A program made the translations under genes and the position numbers. This document shows, one piece after another, positions 4,666-18,427 of a DNA stretch of 20,000 nucleotides; position 1 is the stretch's first letter, and the number at the start of each line of letters is the position of its first letter. Where the stretch lies: IMG/VR virus record IMGVR_UViG_3300042881_003198, positions 56,335 through 76,334 of that record; one strand, given 5' to 3'. The notes under the pieces were generated by a model. It saw nothing but the letters and a program-made list of their open reading frames with translations, did not search any database and was not told the DNA's origin. The DNA comes from an uncultured virus (IMG/VR IMGVR_UViG_3300042881_003198) (taxonomy: Duplodnaviria; Heunggongvirae; Uroviricota; Caudoviricetes).

Positions 4666-4673
4666 TATAAATA
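4666..4673 (+). promoter_or_regulatory. T4-type late promoter TATAAATA for the antisense HNH gene
   Basis: Exact consensus 21 nt before ATG 4695, followed by a purine-rich RBS (CAGGGGAA). Confidence 0.8.
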
Positions 4674-4694
4674 GTAGTAGCAGGGACAGGGGAA

Positions 4695-5363
4695 ATGTTT
4701 AGTCAAATCTATTATAATCTATGCGAAAGCAATAGGTCAAGAAAAGACAATTATAAAAAATATTCTGGGTTACACGAACACCATATTACTCCAAAACATA
4801 TGGGGGGAGATGATAGTGAAGAAAATCTCACTTATTTAAGTGTAAGAGAACATATCATAGCACATTATTTGCTTTGGAAAATTTATAAAAATCCAAATGA
4901 TTTAAGGTCTATGAAAATGTTGGGGGCAAATATAACACCCCAACACAGAAAAATAATAGGAGAATTTTGTAGAGATAATCAAATTGGGTTCTTCTCAATC
5001 CCAGTAGAAGAAAGAAAAGATTGGAGACTAAAAGGAATAGAAATACAAAAACAAGAATATCTAATCAATAATACTAAAAATTTCTATTATTGGAGCACAG
5101 AAGAAGGCAGAAAGGAAAGAGCATCAATTGGAGGAAAACAAAGAGCATCCACAGAATTCAATTATTGGGCATCTAATGAAGGAAGAAAAACACGAGCATC
5201 ATTAGGGGGAAAAGCACATAAAGGCAAAAAGGTAATGCATTTACCGGGAACAAAGGGATGGAAAAGAGTATCCCCAGAAGAAGTTGATATAAAACTAAAT
5301 GAAGGTTGGAAGTTTGGAACTGGAGAACCAGCACCAAATTCCAAAATCAAGAAATCTTCCTAA
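4695..5363 (+). mobile_element. Free-standing MobE-like HNH homing endonuclease between the gp41 fragments, antisense orientation
   Basis: LHEHHITPKHMGGDDSEENLTYLSVREHIIAHYLLWKIY matches the T4 MobE-type HNH N-terminal domain. Confidence 0.88.
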
Positions 5364-5987: not shown

Positions 5988-6533
5988 TTAAAGATTACGT
6001 TTATGATGCGGAACGTCAAATACAAAAGTAATTCTAACGTTGTCGCCAATATTGACTGCCTTATGAGGCAGTTTATTATTAAACCAAAAAAGAGTTCCAG
6101 GTTCAACGATTATAGTCTCATCTCCAACAGTATACTCGTATTTTCCCTGAATGGAAAGATGATATCTATCTTTTGTAAGATAGTAAGTTCCTTCGTCAAT
6201 ATGAGAACCAACTATTTCACCAACCGGAAGAGCAAGGAATCCACAACGACGAAGTTTCTTAAAATATTTTCCCAAGTAATTAAGAATCTCCGTGTGTTTT
6301 TCATATGCCGGAGTTTTAATGCATATCTCAGTATTCCCCACATATTGGTCTTCTTTTTCAACTCCACCCATTATGAGTTGTAGAACATCTACAGTAACGG
6401 TATACTCTGTAGGGTCCAGTTGCTCGGAGTCTTCAATATTTTTTTGAGATCCCCAGTCTTCTGGATGTTCTTTAAGTTGCTCTAGTATTTTAGATACATC
6501 AATACCAGTTTTTATAATGCGTATGTTTTTCAT
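5988..6533 (-). CDS. Aspartyl/asparaginyl beta-hydroxylase-like 2OG-Fe(II) oxygenase
   Basis: HxD motif (SHIDEG), [21 protein letters not shown] and RITFVFD. Confidence 0.8.
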
Positions 6534-7000
6534 ACGCCATAGGAAAATTCACCCTTAGCAATCACATCAAGTTTTTCCATTACCTCTTCAGTGAAGTATT
6601 TCTCTGGGTTCTTGAGAATTTCCTTGGCATAAATTTTCTTACCATCAATTTCATATCGCCCCGCTACATTCTTCCACATTTCGCCCAATTCCCCAAGCTC
6701 AAGAAGACCATAGTAACGATCAAGACCACGCTCGTCATAATAAAGACGAACTTCAACTTCTTGATTTTCCTTACTTAAACGTGATTTATGAGTCTTTGCC
6801 TTAATAATATTTCCGATGACTTCTGTCCCTTCTTTTTCTTTCTTTTTGCTGAGATAGATGATTGTAGAAGCAGCATACTTAAGACCAGAGTTGTGGGAGA
6901 CAATACCTCCATGAAGTATGTAATGATGTTCCCCCTCCACAGTAATGTCATATACTTCTTCTGTTTCAACTTTTTTGATAGACTTTACAATTCGTTCCAT
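6530..7000 (-). CDS. uvsX: UvsX RecA-like recombinase, C-terminal fragment, fused behind a 37-aa split-intein C part
   Basis: [37 protein letters not shown] followed by [19 protein letters not shown]...KSRLSKEN...[21 protein letters not shown] lies inside the upstream HNH gene. Confidence 0.93.
6890..7000 (-). other. Split intein C-fragment (IntC, 37 aa) of UvsX
   Basis: Block [13 protein letters not shown], block G SHN, and Ser(+1) at 6887-6889. Confidence 0.93.
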
Positions 7001-7634
7001 GCCACCTCTTATACATTGGGTATGTTATTTGTTTCTGACAGTGCTCACAGACAACCTGCCTGTGTTTTTTTCCATAACGAGGAGACTTCTCTCCTTTTCT
7101 TTCAGATGCCAGTTCCGAAAGAATTTTTTTTGTTTGTTCTGAGTGCGTTTTGTTGAAGAATGGATTAGACTCTCCACTCATCCTTTCACTCATCATTTTT
7201 CTATGTTCTGGAGAAGAAACAGTTTGTCTATGTTTTTCACGAACAACAGGATTAAACATTGGATTATTTTGTCCATAATGCCCTCTTCCATAGAAAGGAT
7301 TATTCTCACCTGAAGTTAAATGAGAATAACTTCTCCTTATTCTATCATAAGAATTTAGATTCTTACACCTAACTCCATTACCATTAATAGAACACATACG
7401 ATAAAAAGCATAACACATTTTTTTCTTATACTCACCCTCAACCATCTTTAATAATAAATGATGACAGATGAAATGTTCTCTTGGAGTTAAATTTACTAAA
7501 TTATCTTTTGTATTTTTACCTCCAAATGATTTGGGAATGATGTGGTGCCTTTCTGTAATGCCATTGATTTCTCTTTCCTTTGCTCTTTCTATAATACGAA
7601 AGTAGCAACTTGTATATTTGTTTATTATAAACAT
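6966..7634 (-). mobile_element. Free-standing MobE-like HNH homing endonuclease with NUMOD3-like repeats, between the uvsX fragments
   Basis: ERHHIIPKSFGGKNTKDNLVNLTPREHFICHHLL, repeated GENNPFYG / GESNPFFNKTHSEQTK motifs, and a C-terminal CxxC...H...C. Overlaps the uvsX-C start by 35 nt. Confidence 0.9.
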
Positions 7635-7675
7635 TAGGTTCTGGTCTTAAGTATTACTATTTAGACCAGAACCTA
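7635..7675 (-). promoter_or_regulatory. 13-bp perfect hairpin abutting the HNH start codon, with late promoter TCTAAATA (7658-7665) at the arm/loop junction
   Basis: Minus strand reads TAGGTTCTGGTCT-AAATAGTAATACTTA-AGACCAGAACCTA-ATG. Confidence 0.8.
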
Positions 7676-7678
7676 TTT

Positions 7679-8626
7679 TCATATTGAAATTGTTGGAATG
7701 CATTTGATTGCATCTCCAGGCAAAAGATCAATTACCTTTTTCCATTCATAACCGTTTTCAGTATCCACTAAAAATTTATGATCTGCACTACATTTAACAA
7801 TTTCACCATCCTCCAATTCCATCTCAAACACTTCTTTATCATTAAAACAAAAAGTATCAGCAACATAAGAGTATCCAAACATAGTTCTTACTTTGTCTCC
7901 AACTTTAATAGATTCAATAGGAACAGAACCTTTTACTGTTTGTATCTTAGTTCCGGCAACTAAGCAACCACCTCCCATTTCTTTAGTAGGAACATATGCA
8001 CCAATAACATCATAAGTATGATTAGTAACTAACATAGGAATTTTTGCCTGACCCAATTTAAGAGTCAGCATACGGAATGCACCCTTAATTAGTTGAGATT
8101 TAGTCATATCCCGAACTTCTTTATCATTCAAAGCATCATTAATCTCTTTGCTGGTGGAGAGCATTCCTAGAGAATCTAGCACGAACATACAAGGATTACG
8201 TTCACCTTCTGGTTTCTTCATATAAAGGTCAACTGCCTTAAGTGCCTTTCCACGAAACTCTTCTACGGTTACGACATTGACAACCACCAAACGAGTTGTG
8301 TCAACTCCCCTACTTTCCAGAAGGGATTTTGTGATTGCTGCTTCAGTATCAAAATACAGACAATATCCAGTAGGATTATTATCAAGGAAATTTTTAACGA
8401 CGGCAAGAGAGAAGAAAGTCTTTCCCGTAGAACTCTCACCTGCGATTGCAGTAATCTTATTCCCAGATACACCACCAAATATACTGCCGGATACAAGAGC
8501 ATTAAAAATGTACGAACCCGTATCCACAAAAGTTTCAGTTTCATTAATCTCTGAAGCAAGTTGTGTGTATTCTCCACCAATTTCTTTTATAATTTGTTGT
8601 AAAAAACTTGATTTAGAATCAGTCAT
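7679..8626 (-). CDS. uvsX: UvsX recombinase, N-terminal fragment, ending in a 95-aa split-intein N part
   Basis: Likely start is ATG 8626. Walker A AGESSTGKT, FDTEAA, VLDSLGML, TNHTY, PTKEMGGG, then CLVAGTKI. Confidence 0.93.
   Translation of the reverse strand: MTDSKSSFLQQIIKEIGGEYTQLASEINETETFVDTGSYIFNALVSGSIFGGVSGNKITAIAGESSTGKTFFSLAVVKNFLDNNPTGYCLYFDTEAAITKSLLESRGVDTTRLVVVNVVTVEEFRGKALKAVDLYMKKPEGERNPCMFVLDSLGMLSTSKEINDALNDKEVRDMTKSQLIKGAFRMLTLKLGQAKIPMLVTNHTYDVIGAYVPTKEMGGGCLVAGTKIQTVKGSVPIESIKVGDKVRTMFGYSYVADTFCFNDKEVFEMELEDGEIVKCSADHKFLVDTENGYEWKKVIDLLPGDAIKCIPTISI
7682..7966 (-). other. Split intein N-fragment (IntN, 95 aa) of UvsX
   Basis: Block A CLVAGTKIQT, then IESIKVGDKV, block B VKCSADHKFL, and WKKVIDLLPGD before the stop. 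Confidence 0.93.
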
Positions 8627-8855
8627 AAACTTTTGCAACTCCTCTTTCAGTTTGTTTTTCTATCCACTTTCTATCTGCTTCCATTCTTTCTTGTTGAAGA
8701 ACTTCATAGTCCTCATCAGTTGGAATTGGAGGTAATTTTTCCCATCCAGAAATATAGGAGGAAAACCCTAAATTAGTGTTCCATCTCCATAGTGTTCCAT
8801 CATCACAAAGGATAATATCATTTCCTATTTGTTTTGGTGTTCTGTTTTCAATCAT
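8619..8855 (-). CDS. Hypothetical protein (78 aa)
   Basis: ORF track; overlaps both neighbours by 8 nt, as expected in an operon. Confidence 0.65.
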   Translation of the reverse strand: MIENRTPKQIGNDIILCDDGTLWRWNTNLGFSSYISGWEKLPPIPTDEDYEVLQQERMEADRKWIEKQTERGVAKVYD

Positions 8856-9003
8856 TTTTCAAGTTTAAAATATTATTAATGTTAGTACGAATTTTAGATG
8901 CTTTTTGTTCTACATCTTCAAGTTCTCTCATAAGAATTTTTAGAGTTTTGTTTTTCATAATCGTATTGATGTAATAATTGTTACTAACTATTGTTTCGTT
9001 CAT
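8848..9003 (-). CDS. Small hypothetical protein (51 aa, MNETIVSNNYY...)
   Basis: Manual translation. Lies right after a strong sigma70-type promoter, with AAGG upstream of the ATG. Confidence 0.55.
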   Translation of the reverse strand: MNETIVSNNYYINTIMKNKTLKILMRELEDVEQKASKIRTNINNILNLKND

Positions 9004-9030
9004 TGCCTTTACCGTCCTATCTACAAAAAG

Positions 9031-9059
9031 ATTATACTACAAAAATTAAGCGCCGTCAA
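9031..9059 (-). promoter_or_regulatory. Sigma70-type early promoter TTGACG-N17-TATAAT
   Basis: -35 at 9054-9059, -10 at 9031-9036, 17-nt spacer. Confidence 0.8.
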
Positions 9060-9838
9060 ATATTTTGAGGGACAGCGCGATATCCTTTATGAGATTTTAT
9101 TCCTCTTTTATGGTTAAGCATATTACATATGGTTGCCTTATCTAAATCATTTTCCCTACAAAATTCTGCTATATTTTTCCCACAGATTATTTCACCTTTT
9201 GGATTTATAATAGAAAAATCTTTACTTTTTTTCTCCACTATTTTATTTACAACTTCAATATCTCTTTTCTTTCCATACAAAAAATGTTTTTCACCTTTTT
9301 TACATTCACTTAATTTGTTTCGTGTTTCTTCCGATGCTTTTCTACCTGTATTTTTTTGACTTATTTTTCTTTTAGTTTCTTCAGAATGTGATTTTCCATA
9401 ATTAGGAGGTATTCTACCTTTTAATGATTCGCTCAATTTTTTCTTATGTTCTTCATTTCTATTTTTAGAATATTCACTCATTTTATTTTTAGTTTTCTCG
9501 GTCATAACATATGGTTTTTTACCTTTCTTTGATTCAGATATTCTAAATCTTGCACTTTCATAAAGATAAGAATTATAATATTTACCTTTTGATTTCATTA
9601 AAATATGCGAGTGAATCATTTTTATTGTTTTTCTATCTTTTAATCCGTATCTTTTAATACAAATCTTTTCTAATAATGCGTGAGCGATATAATGCTCTCT
9701 TGCCGTAAGTACTACAATTCTACTATTGTCCCCAAAGATACTTTTAGGAAAGGTATGATGCTTTTCTGTGTAACCTTCAGGCGGAGTTCTATTCTCTGCT
9801 TTCCTGATGAGACTACAATAAATCTTTAGATAGTTCAT
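9056..9838 (-). mobile_element. Free-standing MobE-like HNH homing endonuclease with NUMOD3 repeats
   Basis: MNYLKIYCSLIRKAENR...EKHHTFPKSIFG...LTAREHYIAHALL; repeats such as GKSHSEETKRKIS and RKASEETRNKLS; C-terminal HTH-like region. Confidence 0.88.
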
Positions 9839-9863
9839 TTCTACTCTATTAAACCCGCACTAT

Positions 9864-9871
9864 TATTTATA
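9864..9871 (-). promoter_or_regulatory. T4-type late promoter TATAAATA for the HNH gene
   Basis: Exact consensus 25 nt upstream of ATG 9838. Confidence 0.8.
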
Positions 9872-9885
9872 ATAGTTTATATTAG

Positions 9886-9907
9886 AAAAGGTGCCCGAAG
9901 AGCACCT
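9886..9907 (-). terminator. Intrinsic terminator with a UUCG-containing loop
   Basis: Minus strand reads AGGTGC-TCTTCGG-GCACCT-TTT. Confidence 0.7.
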
Positions 9908-9945
9908 AATCTTATCTGTAGAGTTTGCGGGTTCAACAGATATTA

Positions 9946-10080
9946 TTATTTATCCTCTTTTTTATTATCAAAATAATTCATTTTATAAGTCCAAAGTTTT
10001 TGATAAAGAGCAGAGTCTCCACCAAGTCGCATTGCACTAATAATAGTATCCAACTCTTTGTCATTAATTGGCAAGTCCAT
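9946..10080 (-). CDS. Small hypothetical protein (44 aa, MDLPINDKELDTIISAMRLGGDSALYQKLW...)
   Basis: Manual translation; its ATG overlaps the gp43 stop (TAATG). Confidence 0.7.
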   Translation of the reverse strand: MDLPINDKELDTIISAMRLGGDSALYQKLWTYKMNYFDNKKEDK

Positions 10081-12581
10081 TAGGTAAAAAATGAATCAAG
10101 GTTTACAGTTTTTTCTACTTCCCATCCAATTGAATCTAAAATAGATTGAAGGGGGTCTACAAAACTTTTCTCAAATTGTAGTTCATAATCAATATATTTG
10201 TCAAGGTTAAGTTCCTTTGGGAAATCTGAAATAAAGGAAATAACATTCTCCTGAATAATATTTGGTTTTTTAAGAAAAATATATTTAACCTTCTCACCGT
10301 TATTAATAAGTGAATATTTATTGGTTAGTTTTTTTTCCTTTATGTAATGATTAAACAGAAGGGCACCACGAATATGAATAGGAGTTTTGGATGCGTAAAT
10401 ATTTGATGGCGAATAATATTTACGAACATCGGATGCCGTTCTTGGGAAAGCAATTTCTTCTGGGGGAAGACTTTTAAACTTTTGACGACAATTATCAATA
10501 AAATCAATTACCTCATCTTCAGTTCCACTCATCATCAATTTCAGAGCATCCTTAATCATCTGACGACAAGGTGCAGGAGTTGAAGATTTAACTGCCTCAA
10601 TACCCATCATTTTAAGTTTAGGTTCAGTATATCTCACACCCTCACTATCCCAGACGTTCAGAATATAACGCTTTTTGGCAGTCCAGATTCCACGGTCGGC
10701 AATATTTTCCCGCTTCATCTGCATCTTCTGGTCATAGGCATTCACATACTCTGCCAGTTCTTGGTAGCAACCTTCAATATATTTTTCAAGTTCCACCTTA
10801 CAGATCTTATCAAGGAACGTGACAATGCCTTCAGTAGTTTTCTCTCTTCCCTTGTATACAGTTTCAACCAAAGGACCCATATGAAGATAAATGGAGTCAG
10901 TATCAGAAGCAATAACATAATCAACATCTTTTGTCTTAAGAATTTTATTCAGATAAGAATTCATCTTACTCTCAATCCAACGAATCGCAACTTGACCCGA
11001 AAGAGTAATTGCTTCTGCATTTGCTAGTTTGAAGTAACGGAAGTACTGATTACCGCAAGCACCATAGGCAGAGTTAAGAGAAATCTTTTTTGCCATTTGA
11101 ATATTATTACATCTGGCAATTTCCTTTTCTAATTCCTTTGTCTTTTTCTTCTCATATTGTTTTTTTGCCGCAATCATTTTCTCTTTGAAAATAACACGGT
11201 CATTATACATTTTCTCCATAAGTTCTGGAAGAAAACCACGAATATCCTTACGGTACATCGCACCATTAGGACATACTGCATAGTCCTTATACATTTCAAA
11301 GGTAAGTTCTTGATTCAAAATTTTATCCACGGTTACACTGGGATGCCTTTCTTCAACAAGGGTTTCGGGACTTACATTAAATTGCATAATCAAATGCGGA
11401 TAAAGGCTGTTTAAGTCAAAATTAACCACCCAATCATACTTTCCGGGAATTGGTTCCTTTACATATGCACCGGCATACTTGGAGTCCTTATCAGTCTTTT
11501 CTTTAGGAGGAATGGCAATATTTCTTTTCTTCAGGTAATTGTAGATAATCGTATCCCACATTCTTACCTGCGAAAATACATCCTCATAGTTGACTTTACC
11601 GTCATATGCCATCGTAAGAGCAAGTTCAATCAGTTTCATCTTGTCTTCCAAACGGTCAACAAGTTCTACGTCAATAATGTTATACTCTACGAATTTCTGC
11701 CAGCCTTTAGTATAGAAGTCCTTGAATGTATCAAACTCAGAGTGATCCAGTTTCTTCTGCCCCAGTTCTACTTCGGCAATATAATCCAGACGATAAGATT
11801 CCTGTGTCTTATAGGTAAACTTCTTATAGAGTTTAATATAGTCAAGTTGACTTATACCACCAATATCATAGGAGATATGTTTTCTTCCAGAAATGTAAAC
11901 TTCATCCTCGGTGACAAGACCCCAAGGAGACATACGCTTCATTAACTTTTCACCTAAAATCCTATCAAGACGGCGAACAAGATAAGGAATATCGTACAGT
12001 TCACTATTCCAACCAGTCACAACCTCTGGAGTATTATCCTCCATCATCCACCAGTGAATAAAGTCATTTAACAGACTATATTCATCAGAAAATGCTCGGT
12101 AAGAAACATTTGATTGGTTATTATTGAACTTACCTTGACCCCAAGTACGAATTTGCTTTGTATTATAATCTTGAAGAGTAATGAGTAATATCTCTTCGGC
12201 AGCATTTTCCACATCAGGAAATCCATTTTCTGATGCGACCTCAATATCAATCGTTGTTAGTTTGATTTTGTCAATATCAAACTTAATTTCATTTTCAGGA
12301 TATTTGTCGGAAATATACTGATAGATGTATTTGTCATTCCCATAGATTTTGAAGTTTTGTACATCAGTATATTTTTTAATAAACTCTCTACAATCTCTCA
12401 CAGAACCTGGTTGAATAGGTTCCACATATTCTCCCTGAAGTGTTGTATATTTGGTTGGTTTTTTAGAAGGCACAAAAAGAGTCGGAGAAAACTTCTCACG
12501 GGTCATAAAATGTTTACCATTTTCATAACCACGAACCAAGAAGTGGTCCCCAACCATTTGCACATTTGTGTAGAATTGCAT
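10080..12581 (-). CDS. gp43: Family B DNA polymerase (T4 gp43-like)
   Basis: Exonuclease motifs DIE, GWNSELYDIPY and YNIIDV; polymerase motifs DLNSLYP, KISLNSAYG, SDTDS and KKRY; C-terminal clamp-binding-like LDSFF. Confidence 0.98.
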   Translation of the reverse strand: MQFYTNVQMVGDHFLVRGYENGKHFMTREKFSPTLFVPSKKPTKYTTLQGEYVEPIQPGSVRDCREFIKKYTDVQNFKIYGNDKYIYQYISDKYPENEIKFDIDKIKLTTIDIEVASENGFPDVENAAEEILLITLQDYNTKQIRTWGQGKFNNNQSNVSYRAFSDEYSLLNDFIHWWMMEDNTPEVVTGWNSELYDIPYLVRRLDRILGEKLMKRMSPWGLVTEDEVYISGRKHISYDIGGISQLDYIKLYKKFTYKTQESYRLDYIAEVELGQKKLDHSEFDTFKDFYTKGWQKFVEYNIIDVELVDRLEDKMKLIELALTMAYDGKVNYEDVFSQVRMWDTIIYNYLKKRNIAIPPKEKTDKDSKYAGAYVKEPIPGKYDWVVNFDLNSLYPHLIMQFNVSPETLVEERHPSVTVDKILNQELTFEMYKDYAVCPNGAMYRKDIRGFLPELMEKMYNDRVIFKEKMIAAKKQYEKKKTKELEKEIARCNNIQMAKKISLNSAYGACGNQYFRYFKLANAEAITLSGQVAIRWIESKMNSYLNKILKTKDVDYVIASDTDSIYLHMGPLVETVYKGREKTTEGIVTFLDKICKVELEKYIEGCYQELAEYVNAYDQKMQMKRENIADRGIWTAKKRYILNVWDSEGVRYTEPKLKMMGIEAVKSSTPAPCRQMIKDALKLMMSGTEDEVIDFIDNCRQKFKSLPPEEIAFPRTASDVRKYYSPSNIYASKTPIHIRGALLFNHYIKEKKLTNKYSLINNGEKVKYIFLKKPNIIQENVISFISDFPKELNLDKYIDYELQFEKSFVDPLQSILDSIGWEVEKTVNLDSFFT

Positions 12582-17899: not shown

Positions 17900-18427
17900 T
17901 TAAATCCATTCTGGTTTACGTTCTGGCATACGAAGATAATTAGATGCAACCCAAGGTTTGGATGCAATATACATCTTGTAAGCAGTAAAAGTGTCAATGC
18001 TTGTGTCAAGTTTATACTCATCAGGCATTGCCCTCGTAAATTCTACCACATTTTTGTAGATGGAAATTTCTTTTCCACTTTTAGTGGCAAAGATATTCTC
18101 TGCAACTTCAAGACTTTTCATACAAGAGTGTTCTTTTTCATAACGATGCTGATACTCATTACAAAGTGCAAATCCGTGCCGAATCAACCAAGCAAGGTTC
18201 TCATGGGATTTTGCTGCCCATTGAGTACAGGGATGATTGCGGAAGGCACCCTTTTCAGTGTCATATGGAAGACCATCTTTCTTGGGAATGTATCCCCAAT
18301 CATAATACCATTTAGAGAAAATGATAGAAACCATCTGACAGGTCTCCAGAGGCATTTTCACAATATGCTTGTCTGGAAGTACCGCAGCAGAAAGCACAGG
18401 ACATTCATCAGTCACAAAAATGTTCAA
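17900..18427 (-). CDS. Pyrimidine-dimer DNA glycosylase (DenV/Pyr_excise)-like protein
   Basis: MNIF...LPDKHIVKMPLETCQM...NHPCTQWA...EYQHRY...AMPDEYK; TTG start with a GAGG SD. Confidence 0.7.
   Translation of the reverse strand: MNIFVTDECPVLSAAVLPDKHIVKMPLETCQMVSIIFSKWYYDWGYIPKKDGLPYDTEKGAFRNHPCTQWAAKSHENLAWLIRHGFALCNEYQHRYEKEHSCMKSLEVAENIFATKSGKEISIYKNVVEFTRAMPDEYKLDTSIDTFTAYKMYIASKPWVASNYLRMPERKPEWI

Follow-up and report, generated by a model that had tools for sequence, protein, structure and literature searches.

A portable leader cassette with complementary arms precedes homing endonuclease genes of freshwater T4-like cyanophages

The leader of a free-standing homing endonuclease gene in an uncultured T4-like phage represents one instance of a portable 5′ control cassette that accompanies such genes in freshwater T4-like cyanophages. 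The cassette carries two arms whose complementarity is maintained by evolution, and the reading we favor, with a probability of about 0.6, is that masking of the leader by the 5′ arm in cis is the main regulation. Homing endonucleases are selfish genes whose expression has to be restrained if the phage is not to be harmed; the T4 design of a masked ribosome-binding site (RBS) with a nested late promoter is known from a handful of hairpins and has had little comparative support. The cassette adds more than 50 natural variants of this design, kept complementary by compensatory change, and it is a portable regulatory module that serves unrelated nuclease families, occurs in several copies per genome and recombines at its inner promoter. 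New relative to the T4 design are an invariant NNTAAATA exactly 5 nt before a purine at the foot of a co-varying hairpin, the hairpin itself and an embedded terminator. Taken together, the NNTAAATA motif, the hairpin and the terminator look like a gene for an RNA of about 57 nt. This extra promoter motif, 5′ hairpin and terminator raise the question of whether T4-like phages have dedicated small RNAs, and a cultured host–phage pair with six copies (Synechococcus phage S-SRM01) makes the question practical to address.

The window, which is the whole 20,000-nucleotide stretch of DNA that we analyzed, holds the endonuclease gene at 9056..9838 on the minus strand, as are all cassette elements and both upstream genes. 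Its 260-aa ORF has NUMOD3 motifs and matches phrog_655 ‘homing endonuclease’ (E 2.1e-32) and Pfam NUMOD3 (E 3.2e-26, above the Pfam cut-off). None of the Pfam HNH models reached E 0.1 against this ORF; a paralogue at 6966-7634 has weak HNH matches in Pfam. Judged by these matches, the product is a homing-endonuclease family member with DNA-binding NUMOD motifs and putative cleavage activity. In a tblastn search, the endonuclease matched 810 records, most of them from enterobacterial T4-like phages (identity about 42%). Upstream lies a gp43-like gene for a family-B DNA polymerase (10080-12581, DNA_pol_B match), followed by a 44-aa ORF (9946..10080, phrog_38428 match, E 1.9e-15) whose TAA stop at 9948-9946 overlaps the first element of the cassette, GATAAATA.

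All of the elements that a first-pass annotation had listed in this leader of about 110 nt are present. In order, they are the NNTAAATA motif, 5 nt, a hairpin with the anti-leader arm, an intrinsic terminator, TATAAATA, 4 nt, the leader arm and the ATG (9838-9836, read from the sequence). The late-promoter-like motif GATAAATA at 9954-9947, here called P1, has a predicted start at the A at 9941 if the motif is taken as −13 to −6; this follows the late-promoter rule, in which the motif spans −13 to −6 with −13 poorly conserved, and Aeh1 has the variant CTAAATA (PMC1524935). Hairpin 1 (9913..9942) has the stem TATCTGT/ACAGATA (6-7 bp) and two inner pairs, GA/TC, and its loop displays the GC-rich core of the 5′ arm (9926..9940). 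The predicted intrinsic-terminator-like hairpin (9884..9912) stands between the two arms and comprises an 8-bp stem (9907-9900/9896-9889, one G-U), a UUC loop and then UUUUCU, to which the fold adds a flanking AGA/UCU extension (9912-9910 with 9886-9884). P2, the consensus late promoter TATAAATA at 9871-9864, has a predicted start at the G at 9858, which would give a 20-nt leader. The record as a whole has 11 copies of TATAAATA on the coding strand and two on the opposite one, most of them 19-34 nt ahead of an ATG. The 7-bp inverted repeat that had been noticed around TATAAATA is real in the window; it is not kept in relatives, as judged by eye. The 3′ arm (9845..9859) lies at −21 to −7 before the ATG and includes part of a purine-rich, Shine–Dalgarno (SD)-like AGAG.

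The two arms pair as had been proposed, 9940-9926 with 9859-9845, over 15 positions with two G-U pairs and 7-21 nt before the ATG; the ATG and the last base of the AGAG are outside the helix. The duplex has an energy of −24.2 kcal/mol, which was matched by one of 3000 dinucleotide shuffles of the upstream segment, and the 5′ arm segment is the leader’s best partner anywhere on the window’s minus strand. The surrounding 141 nt have a folding energy of −42.4 kcal/mol (z = −6.49), a value that none of 200 shuffles equaled, and in the minimum-energy structure the long-range helix encloses the terminator.

Upstream regions were examined for the first 46 of 80 endonuclease loci, the remainder being partial-protein matches or at 30-49% identity. 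The 52 distinct cassette copies that we collected come from uncultured T4-like phage contigs and from S-SRM01, which has six, at positions 17953, 48433, 51247, 55959, 62406 and 192421 of its record; they precede HNH and GIY-YIG-like endonuclease genes in many different genomic contexts, with up to nine copies per record, and at L020 and L112 one leader type occurs with both kinds of gene. At one locus, ten contigs have an identical type of 5′ half; nine of them retain its cognate leader, and the tenth has an HNH gene with a foreign leader. This chimera (L025), with its non-cognate 5′ arm, reflects a gene replacement that has its breakpoint at the inner promoter. When the region was compared with cultured phages by megablast, the sole match was to the polymerase part of a single marine virus record, and a more distant blastn search found the cassette, among cultured phages, only in S-SRM01. 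Two short blastn matches in Acinetobacter phages lie inside head-protein genes and were taken as chance. In Rfam, no family reached its gathering threshold (the best was the L20 leader, 17.7 bits vs 58.7, E 0.55), and our literature search found no paper describing this cassette or an RNA from it.

Across these copies the layout is strikingly regular. TAAATA stands at the P1 offset in 52/52 cassettes, whatever lies upstream, whereas the two bases before it and the five after it vary; T occupies −1 in 45 copies, and every one of the 52 has a purine at +1. P1 reads TATAAATA in nine copies and has C at its second position in 11. P2 reads TATAAATA in 51/52, always between the arms, with G at +1 in 46 and A in six; its position would place the transcription start within the first bases of the leader arm, leaving 18-25 nt of leader (20 nt in 26/52). 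The arms are 65-85 nt apart and enclose the intrinsic terminator, and a GC-rich hairpin followed by a T-run is predicted at its place in 25/25 cassettes. In the same number, hairpin 1 is part of the minimum-energy fold of the P1-to-terminator segment and begins at +1 or +2. The predicted P1-to-terminator RNA is 48-71 nt long across cassettes, and 58 nt for the window’s copy. A search for RNA sequencing runs that cover positions 8600-10700 of the window returned none, a result with no bearing on expression.

Covariation provides the strongest evidence for the arm pairing. Among 25 distinct leaders aligned with MAFFT, paired cells make up 93.0% vs 30-43% in slid controls, nine of the 15 pairs change on both sides with 90 compensatory cells, and none of 500 shuffles reaches the covariation score. 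A model-fitted alignment of 46 distinct leaders gives 93.5% paired cells vs 29-41% in slid controls, with changes on both sides at 15/15 pairs and 203 compensatory cells; covariation of seed and target across homologues had been named by the first-pass annotation as a check on its proposal, and the outcome is clearly positive. Cognate arm/leader duplexes average −23.1 kcal/mol vs −9.6 for non-cognate ones, and 24/25 are at −19.7 or below. One helix position is G-U in 26/46 sequences. On this comparative evidence the arm pairing is functional: more than 50 natural variants kept complementary are an unusually strong evolutionary proof. The same covariation is equally expected for pairing in cis and in trans and cannot separate the two.

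Hairpin 1 also co-varies, with 25 distinct stem variants (U-G variants included) among 34 sequences. In an alignment-free strand-swap test, cognate strands gave −6.8 kcal/mol and 6.06 pairs, vs −3.8 kcal/mol and 3.41 pairs for swapped strands. RNAalifold predicted no pairs on the MAFFT alignment of the hairpin-1 region because the 3′ strands are out of register there. Hairpin 1 competes with five of the 15 mask pairs. In read-through RNA the mask dominates thermodynamically, being present in the predicted minimum-energy fold of 39/40 cassettes.

These observations lead us to favor masking in cis. Transcripts from the upstream gene or from P1 would mostly end at the terminator; in RNA that reads through, the 5′ arm would pair with the leader from −21 to −7 and hide the ribosome-loading region, such that early or read-through RNA would yield no nuclease. 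Late in infection, P2 would initiate at the first bases of the leader arm to produce an open leader of about 20 nt that lacks a masking partner, and the nuclease would be translated only from this late P2 mRNA. The design would be the one known from T4, an RBS mask with a nested late promoter, to which the terminator adds a second lock; here we infer that the promoters are active and where they start, that transcripts terminate and how translation is affected. The P1–hairpin–terminator segment, to judge from its sequence, probably also exists as a discrete RNA of about 57 nt or as the 3′-terminal part of the upstream mRNA, and action of such an RNA in trans, as an add-on to the cis mask, is possible.

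Precedents for a cis mask are found in the T4 family. Hairpins that mask an RBS, together with a late promoter whose transcripts avoid them, have been reported at I-TevI, I-TevII, I-TevIII, segB and Aeh1 mobE, and at the T4 late genes soc and e, and a late promoter between the arms is given as the defining layout of the endonuclease masks (Edgell, Gibb and Belfort 2010, PMC2988022). As these masks are described there, they share with the cassette an upstream arm that pairs with the ribosome-binding leader, a late promoter between the arms that gives unmasked late transcripts, and a common purpose, the limitation of a selfish nuclease to late, low expression. Against the same descriptions, the cassette differs in that its arms are 65-85 nt apart around an intrinsic terminator, its 5′ arm lies in a co-varying hairpin at a fixed distance after an invariant late-promoter-like motif, its helix covers −21 to −7 rather than the SD plus AUG, and it is a mobile module common to several endonuclease families with up to nine copies per record. 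The suggestion that the leader goes beyond the known T4 cis hairpins therefore holds for the added promoter motif, hairpin and terminator only; a late promoter between the arms is already the T4-family layout. Simpler relatives also exist, in which a plain hairpin carries the late-promoter motif in an arm or in the loop and has no terminator. The other HNH gene of the window has a 13-bp hairpin that ends at its ATG (−21.1 kcal/mol, z −5.86), and L030, L031, L034 and G002:88358 have, by eye, plain-hairpin leaders too. These simpler relatives, the T4-family precedent, the arm pairing and the position of P2 between the arms together support masking in cis.

Several features are not what a pure cis mask would need. 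These are the invariant TAAATA with its fixed 5-nt spacer and purine (52/52), the co-varying hairpin 1, and the terminator between the arms, which would mean that most RNAs with the 5′ arm never contain the leader. The helix stops at −7, leaving the ATG and part of the SD-like AGAG unpaired. In the model-fitted alignment, the ten pairs displayed in the loop are 98.9% paired, whereas the five nearest the SD-like bases are the least kept (82.8%); loop-first pairing would account for this pattern no less well than RBS occlusion.

Such features bear on the proposal of the first-pass annotation that a trans-acting small RNA is the main regulator, a reading that we consider plausible in outline and nonetheless rather unlikely. 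P1 would fire late and give an RNA of about 57 nt consisting of a 5′-terminal hairpin and the terminator; its loop seed would pair with the single-stranded 5′ end of the P2 mRNA and extend into the stem, and the pairing would block ribosome loading or trigger cleavage, keeping the nuclease dose low. In a variant of this proposal, the terminated 3′ end of the upstream gene’s mRNA could act likewise. The invariance of TAAATA amid variable flanks, the purine at +1, the hairpin that begins at +1 or +2, its covariation and the near-complete pairing of the loop-displayed 10 bp all point in this direction. For 39/40 cassettes, the small RNA is predicted to bind the late mRNA with a net energy between −8.7 and −19.7 kcal/mol, and the target is mostly unpaired in many, although not all, predicted late mRNAs. 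Furthermore, NATAAATA and NCTAAATA variants occur elsewhere in the record on the coding strand, 19-31 nt before ATGs (11 vs 3 and 14 vs 0 by strand), and variants of this type count as late promoters in S-PM2 and Aeh1 (PMC2984593, PMC1524935).

The status of P1 itself is mixed. GATAAATA is the GAT AAA TAA end of the 44-aa ORF, which the first-pass annotation had offered as a reason to doubt the motif, and the TAA/TAG of the P1 motif is the stop of the upstream ORF in 29/51 cassettes; its conservation may partly have this other cause. As a full explanation, we rejected the idea that the motif is only a stop codon: TAAATA is invariant, the upstream stop lies outside the motif in 22/51 cassettes, and the motif persists, by eye, directly after tRNA 3′ ends (L032, L098) and a few bases after upstream terminators (L022, L023), which also favors a small RNA. 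The proposed promoter-to-terminator unit gains sequence evidence from TAAATA, the purine at +1, the co-varying hairpin and a predicted length of 48-71 nt. P1 is sub-consensus (TATAAATA in 9/52, C at the second position in 11/52) in comparison with P2 (51/52), and from the quality of the two promoters one would therefore not expect more repressor than target.

Other observations also weigh against trans action. The 5′ half was never found apart from the leader half: in a model search of 13 records, strong matches were all full length and on the gene strand, although the two-half model is weak for lone halves. Nothing in these matches requires action at a distance. For the leader of the L025 chimera, no cognate arm was found elsewhere on its contig, which at 13 kb (6% complete) is too short for this result to bear on trans action. 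Simpler cassettes of the same gene families work without P1 or a terminator. Seeds are not orthogonal within a genome; in G002, L105 and L106 share one seed, and we dropped orthogonality as an argument for trans action, as cross-repression would in any case do no harm. Our assessment is that the P1–hairpin–terminator unit is doubtful as a true late gene for a trans repressor of about 57 nt directed at the neighboring endonuclease mRNA. If it were one, each cassette would be a self-contained small RNA/target pair with a 10-nt loop seed, with dozens of specificities, traveling with HNH and GIY-YIG genes alike; these units would then form the first family of small regulatory RNAs acting in trans from T4-like phages, and their matched seeds and targets a naturally occurring orthogonal set.

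A further alternative is that the repeats act mainly on DNA, as recombination or junction sequences for cassette moves, and that the RNA pairing has no regulatory role. The many contexts and up to nine copies per record, the one leader type shared by HNH and GIY-YIG-like genes, and the gene replacement with its breakpoint at the inner promoter all fit such a role, as does the proposal that PeSL elements are sites of shuffling in T4-like phages (PMC4122927). Recombination sites, however, need no complementarity of arms through many sequences, which here has left 203 compensatory cells; G-U pairs are tolerated on the sense strand, and mismatched chimeras are rare (1/52). We regard an action mainly on DNA as very improbable. 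PeSL elements are composites of a terminator and an early promoter (Comeau, Arbiol and Krisch 2014, PMC4122927). As portrayed there, they resemble the cassette as short, conserved terminator-plus-promoter modules, repeated per genome and tied to gene shuffling; their promoter is of the early (sigma-70) type and the cited passages describe no complementary arms or RBS mask, in contrast to the late-type TATAAATA of the cassette. By the sequence of the promoter after the stem-loop, which is of the late type, the cassette is not a PeSL element. Finally, a chance match in an AT-rich intergenic region, for which the short length of 15 nt is the sole point in favor, has a negligible probability, being ruled out by the covariation, with pairing kept through compensatory changes in 51/52 distinct cassettes, and by the cognate vs non-cognate duplex energies, in line with the shuffling of the window’s own upstream segment.

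The candidate RNA can also be compared with known RNA regulators. Cyanophage S-PM2 has CfrI, an antisense RNA of about 225 nt that overlaps a homing endonuclease gene and psbA (Millard et al. 2010, via PMC2984593). The candidate, like CfrI as summarized in that source, would be a regulatory RNA associated with a homing endonuclease of a T4-like cyanophage. CfrI comes from the strand opposite its target, to which it is complementary throughout, whereas the candidate shares the strand of its target, lies upstream of it and has a 15-nt seed. Type I toxin–antitoxin and antisense systems display their seed in a loop, and the type I target is a small toxic membrane peptide. StxS is a small RNA that arises by early termination after a phage late promoter (PMC7547250). 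With these systems, as far as the StxS source describes its RNA, the candidate would share a short, promoter-proximal, terminated RNA with a loop seed and an adjacent harmful gene that is repressed. Type I targets are small membrane peptides and the target here is a 260-aa nuclease; the cassette is not a type I toxin–antitoxin member because its target is a homing endonuclease of this size, and the earlier comparison to a type I antitoxin survives only as an analogy of mechanism. The cis reading explains most features without recourse to type I or StxS-like systems.

The closest loci in other uncultured phages may be those of the ‘fractured genes’ in marine metagenomes, in which 15/16 endonuclease 5′ UTRs have hairpins, ten with TATAAATA, and two conserved motifs are in most cases base-paired to one another (Dassa et al. 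2009, PMC2677866). Like the cassette, these are endonuclease genes of uncultured T4-like phages with paired upstream motifs; the relevant passages present them as simple hairpins and mention no embedded terminator, second promoter motif or covariation analysis (PMC2677866). Some of these loci may carry this same cassette. The window also contains a fractured gene, uvsX.

The window's homing endonuclease gene lies on the minus strand (9838-9056; 260 aa; phrog_655, E 2.1e-32; NUMOD3, E 3.2e-26), downstream of a family-B DNA polymerase gene (10080-12581, minus; Pfam DNA_pol_B) and the conserved 44-aa ORF that follows it (9946-10080, minus; phrog_38428, E 1.9e-15). A 107-nt gap separates this ORF from the endonuclease gene, and the control leader found here, which we call the cassette, reads on the minus strand as a late-promoter-like motif, P1 (GATAAATA, 9954-9947), whose end is the TAA stop of the 44-aa ORF; hairpin 1 (9942-9913), which holds the 5′ arm (9940-9926); a terminator with a GC-rich 8-bp stem followed by UUUUCU (9907-9884); an inner late promoter, P2 (TATAAATA, 9871-9864); and a 15-nt 3′ arm (9859-9845, -21 to -7 from the ATG) complementary to the 5′ arm with two G-U pairs. 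Sequence reading places every element where the first-pass annotation had put it, and the 15-nt complementarity it claimed is real: the arm/leader duplex (-24.2 kcal/mol) was equaled by 1 of 3000 dinucleotide shuffles, and a scan of the window's minus strand found no partner for the leader equal to the 5′ arm segment. The minimum-energy structure of the leader region, a long-range helix enclosing the terminator, has a folding energy of -42.4 kcal/mol (z -6.49) that none of 200 shuffles matched; an Rfam search of this region gave no family match.

Across homologues the two arms co-vary strongly, as had been proposed for seed and target. When 25 leaders are aligned with MAFFT, 93.0% of cells at the 15 proposed pairs are paired; sliding the partner by 1-3 columns lowers this to 30-43%. 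Both partners vary in nine of the pairs, and 90 cells are compensatory. None of 500 shuffles reached the covariation score; the count of pairs in which both partners vary, taken on its own, was reached by 42 of 500. Mean duplex energy is -23.1 kcal/mol for cognate arms versus -9.6 for non-cognate arms, the sole exception being one locus, L025, at -6.2. A model-fitted alignment of 46 distinct copies, which is biased towards structure by construction and with which the MAFFT result agrees, has 93.5% of cells paired (29-41% in slid controls) and compensatory change in all 15 pairs (203 compensatory cells). In these copies the 10 loop-displayed pairs are 98.9% paired, versus 82.8% for the five stem-overlapping pairs.

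Because the layout of arm, late promoter, arm and ATG is that of the T4 family, our preferred reading, to which we give a probability of roughly 0.6, is that the cassette masks the leader in cis, with a late promoter nested in the mask and the terminator as reinforcement. Passages of PMC2988022 describe the same design for I-TevI, I-TevII, I-TevIII, segB and Aeh1 mobE, with masks that form on upstream-promoter transcripts alone and unmasked mRNA coming from a late promoter within the structure; a passage of PMC2677866 reports that similar hairpins with TATAAATA precede endonuclease genes in ‘fractured genes’ from marine metagenomes. In the cassette, the 5′ arm of read-through RNA from upstream would pair with the leader and mask the endonuclease's ribosome-binding region, and the terminator between the arms would add to this block; a P2 transcript would start on the leader arm, lack the 5′ arm, and provide unmasked endonuclease mRNA. 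If the late motif spans -13 to -6, as in a passage of PMC1524935, its position predicts a P2 start at G 9858, which is position 2 of the leader arm and would give a 20-nt leader. Of 52 distinct cassettes, 51 have TATAAATA as the inner promoter; the predicted +1 is a G in 46 and an A in the other six, and leader length ranges from 18 to 25 nt. The predicted fold of the read-through RNA carries the mask in 39 of 40 cassettes. The cassette thus has the sequence-level traits of T4 masks and would work likewise, but it differs from them in its embedded terminator, second promoter-like motif, bistable 5′ hairpin, modular mobility and copy number. For the added promoter-like motif, 5′ hairpin and terminator the earlier suggestion of something beyond simple cis hairpins stands, whereas the layout itself is the T4 design.

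Judged by sequence conservation, three features would be surplus to a mask: the P1 motif, hairpin 1 and the terminator between the arms. The six core bases of the upstream NNTAAATA motif are invariant (52/52 cassettes), and five variable bases and then a purine always follow, with T at -1 in 45/52. NATAAATA and NCTAAATA variants in the window's record have a strand bias like that of TATAAATA, several lying 19-31 nt before ATGs, and S-PM2 and Aeh1 have accepted late promoters of this type (passages of PMC2984593 and PMC1524935). Hairpin 1 starts at the predicted +1 purine or at +2 (25 of 25 cassettes examined) and also co-varies, with 25 stem variants among 34 sequences; after exchange of its 5′ strand between cassettes, 3.41 pairs remain of 6.06, and the energy weakens from -6.8 to -3.8 kcal/mol. 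Since hairpin 1 and the mask share five bases, the two structures compete. Taken together, P1, hairpin 1 and the terminator resemble a gene for an RNA of 48-71 nt (predicted at 58 nt, ~9941 to 9884, for the window copy) whose loop displays the 10 best-kept pairing bases and whose predicted net binding to the late mRNA lies between -8.7 and -19.7 kcal/mol in 39 of 40 cassettes. The cis mask leaves unexplained the invariant core, fixed spacing and following purine of P1, the conservation and covariation of hairpin 1, and the conserved terminator. That this is a dedicated phage small RNA is the more novel possibility, and a testable one, but we consider it less likely than the cis mask. Against a dominant role in trans, the upstream motif is consensus in only 9/52 cassettes, its TAA/TAG is the upstream gene's stop codon in 29/51, the cassette halves never occur apart among covariance-model matches in the records searched, and simpler relatives do without the upstream motif or terminator. 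Of the small-RNA proposal, then, P1, the co-varying hairpin, the terminator and the arm pairing stand as sequence features, and a dominant trans role gives way to the cis mask as the likelier reading. The likeness to type I antitoxins goes no further than mechanism, type I toxin-antitoxin membership being rejected because the regulated product is a nuclease; the late type of its promoter likewise sets the cassette apart from PeSL elements. Our literature searches found no description of the cassette or of an RNA from it, and a term search of the S-SRM01 genome paper found no mention of the cassette.

We found 137 endonuclease relatives by a protein-guided scan of viral contigs and kept 80; the first 46 loci comprised 30 distinct upstream sequences. 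The window's leader architecture recurs in 25 of these, two have a simpler hairpin with TATAAATA in the loop, two the late promoter alone, and one none of these elements. Upstream flanks are wholly different (ends of unrelated ORFs, tRNA genes); the leader therefore travels with the endonuclease gene. Of 51 cassettes, 29 have the longest upstream ORF stopping at the TAA/TAG within the NNTAAATA motif, and 13 more have it stopping ≤13 nt upstream, so the cassette abuts the preceding gene or provides its stop codon. A covariance model from the 25-leader alignment, used to search further records, found one strong copy in the window's own record (76 kb), three in the complete record G001 (222 kb), nine in G002 (136 kb), six in G003 (89 kb), none in G004 (171 kb), two in G005 (73 kb), 1-3 in each of five shorter contigs (G006-G010, 13-80 kb) and six in the cultured freshwater Synechococcus phage S-SRM01 (Kyanoviridae; 241 kb). 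A weak match outside the window (G000:C1:14942-15027, minus; 20 bits, E 0.34) comprises a terminator and TATAAATA ahead of a 204-aa ORF, with no arm/leader complementarity visible by eye.

Mismatched products are rare: L025 is the only one among 52 distinct cassettes. Its 5′ half is common to ten contigs, nine of which retain a different ORF together with the cognate leader; the tenth, L025's own contig (L141), carries an HNH gene with a foreign leader, the junction lying at the inner late promoter. L141 is identical to L132, L134, L135 and L138 in the cassette's 5′ half and differs in leader and gene. The non-complementary cassette is thus the product of a gene replacement with its breakpoint at the inner late promoter, so inner promoter, leader and gene can move as their own unit.

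The ORFs behind the cassettes include HNH/NUMOD3-type genes like the window's, genes with NUMOD3 and weak GIY-YIG matches, and other small ORFs. Among four scanned ORFs of other records, three have NUMOD3 (one at E 1.6e-4), two a weak GIY-YIG match (E 3e-4 and 7e-4, both below the Pfam cut-off) and one no family; a single leader type, seed included, precedes one HNH gene (L020) and one GIY-YIG-like gene (L112). The annotated S-SRM01 ‘homing endonuclease’ (L124 1457-2158; NC_070963.1 192466-193167) begins 18 codons before the conserved start MNYLKIYC and so extends across the terminator and inner promoter of the cassette; the annotation has probably set its start too far upstream.

A second endonuclease gene in the window has as its leader (7634-7675, minus) a classical T4-style mask without terminator or second motif: a simple hairpin of 13 bp (-21.1 kcal/mol, z -5.86) that ends at the ATG and whose 5′ arm and loop contain TCTAAATA. 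This free-standing HNH/NUMOD3 gene (6966-7634, minus) splits a ‘fractured’ uvsX gene (6530-8638, minus) into a UvsX N-part with an N-intein (Hint) end (7679-8638, minus) and a C-intein end plus UvsX C-part (6530-7000, minus), the arrangement that Dassa et al. 2009 reported for other host genes (a passage of PMC2677866). A third HNH-like ORF (4666-5363, plus; phrog_655, E 3.9e-16), on the strand opposite to nearly all other genes, has TATAAATA 21 nt before its ATG and an unstructured leader (z +1.89). By eye, a sigma-70-like promoter (TTGACG-17 nt-TATAAT; 9031-9059, minus) overlaps the TGA stop of the cassette's endonuclease gene and could drive the next small ORF (9003-8848), in which case the genes downstream would still have an early promoter in spite of the terminator in the cassette.
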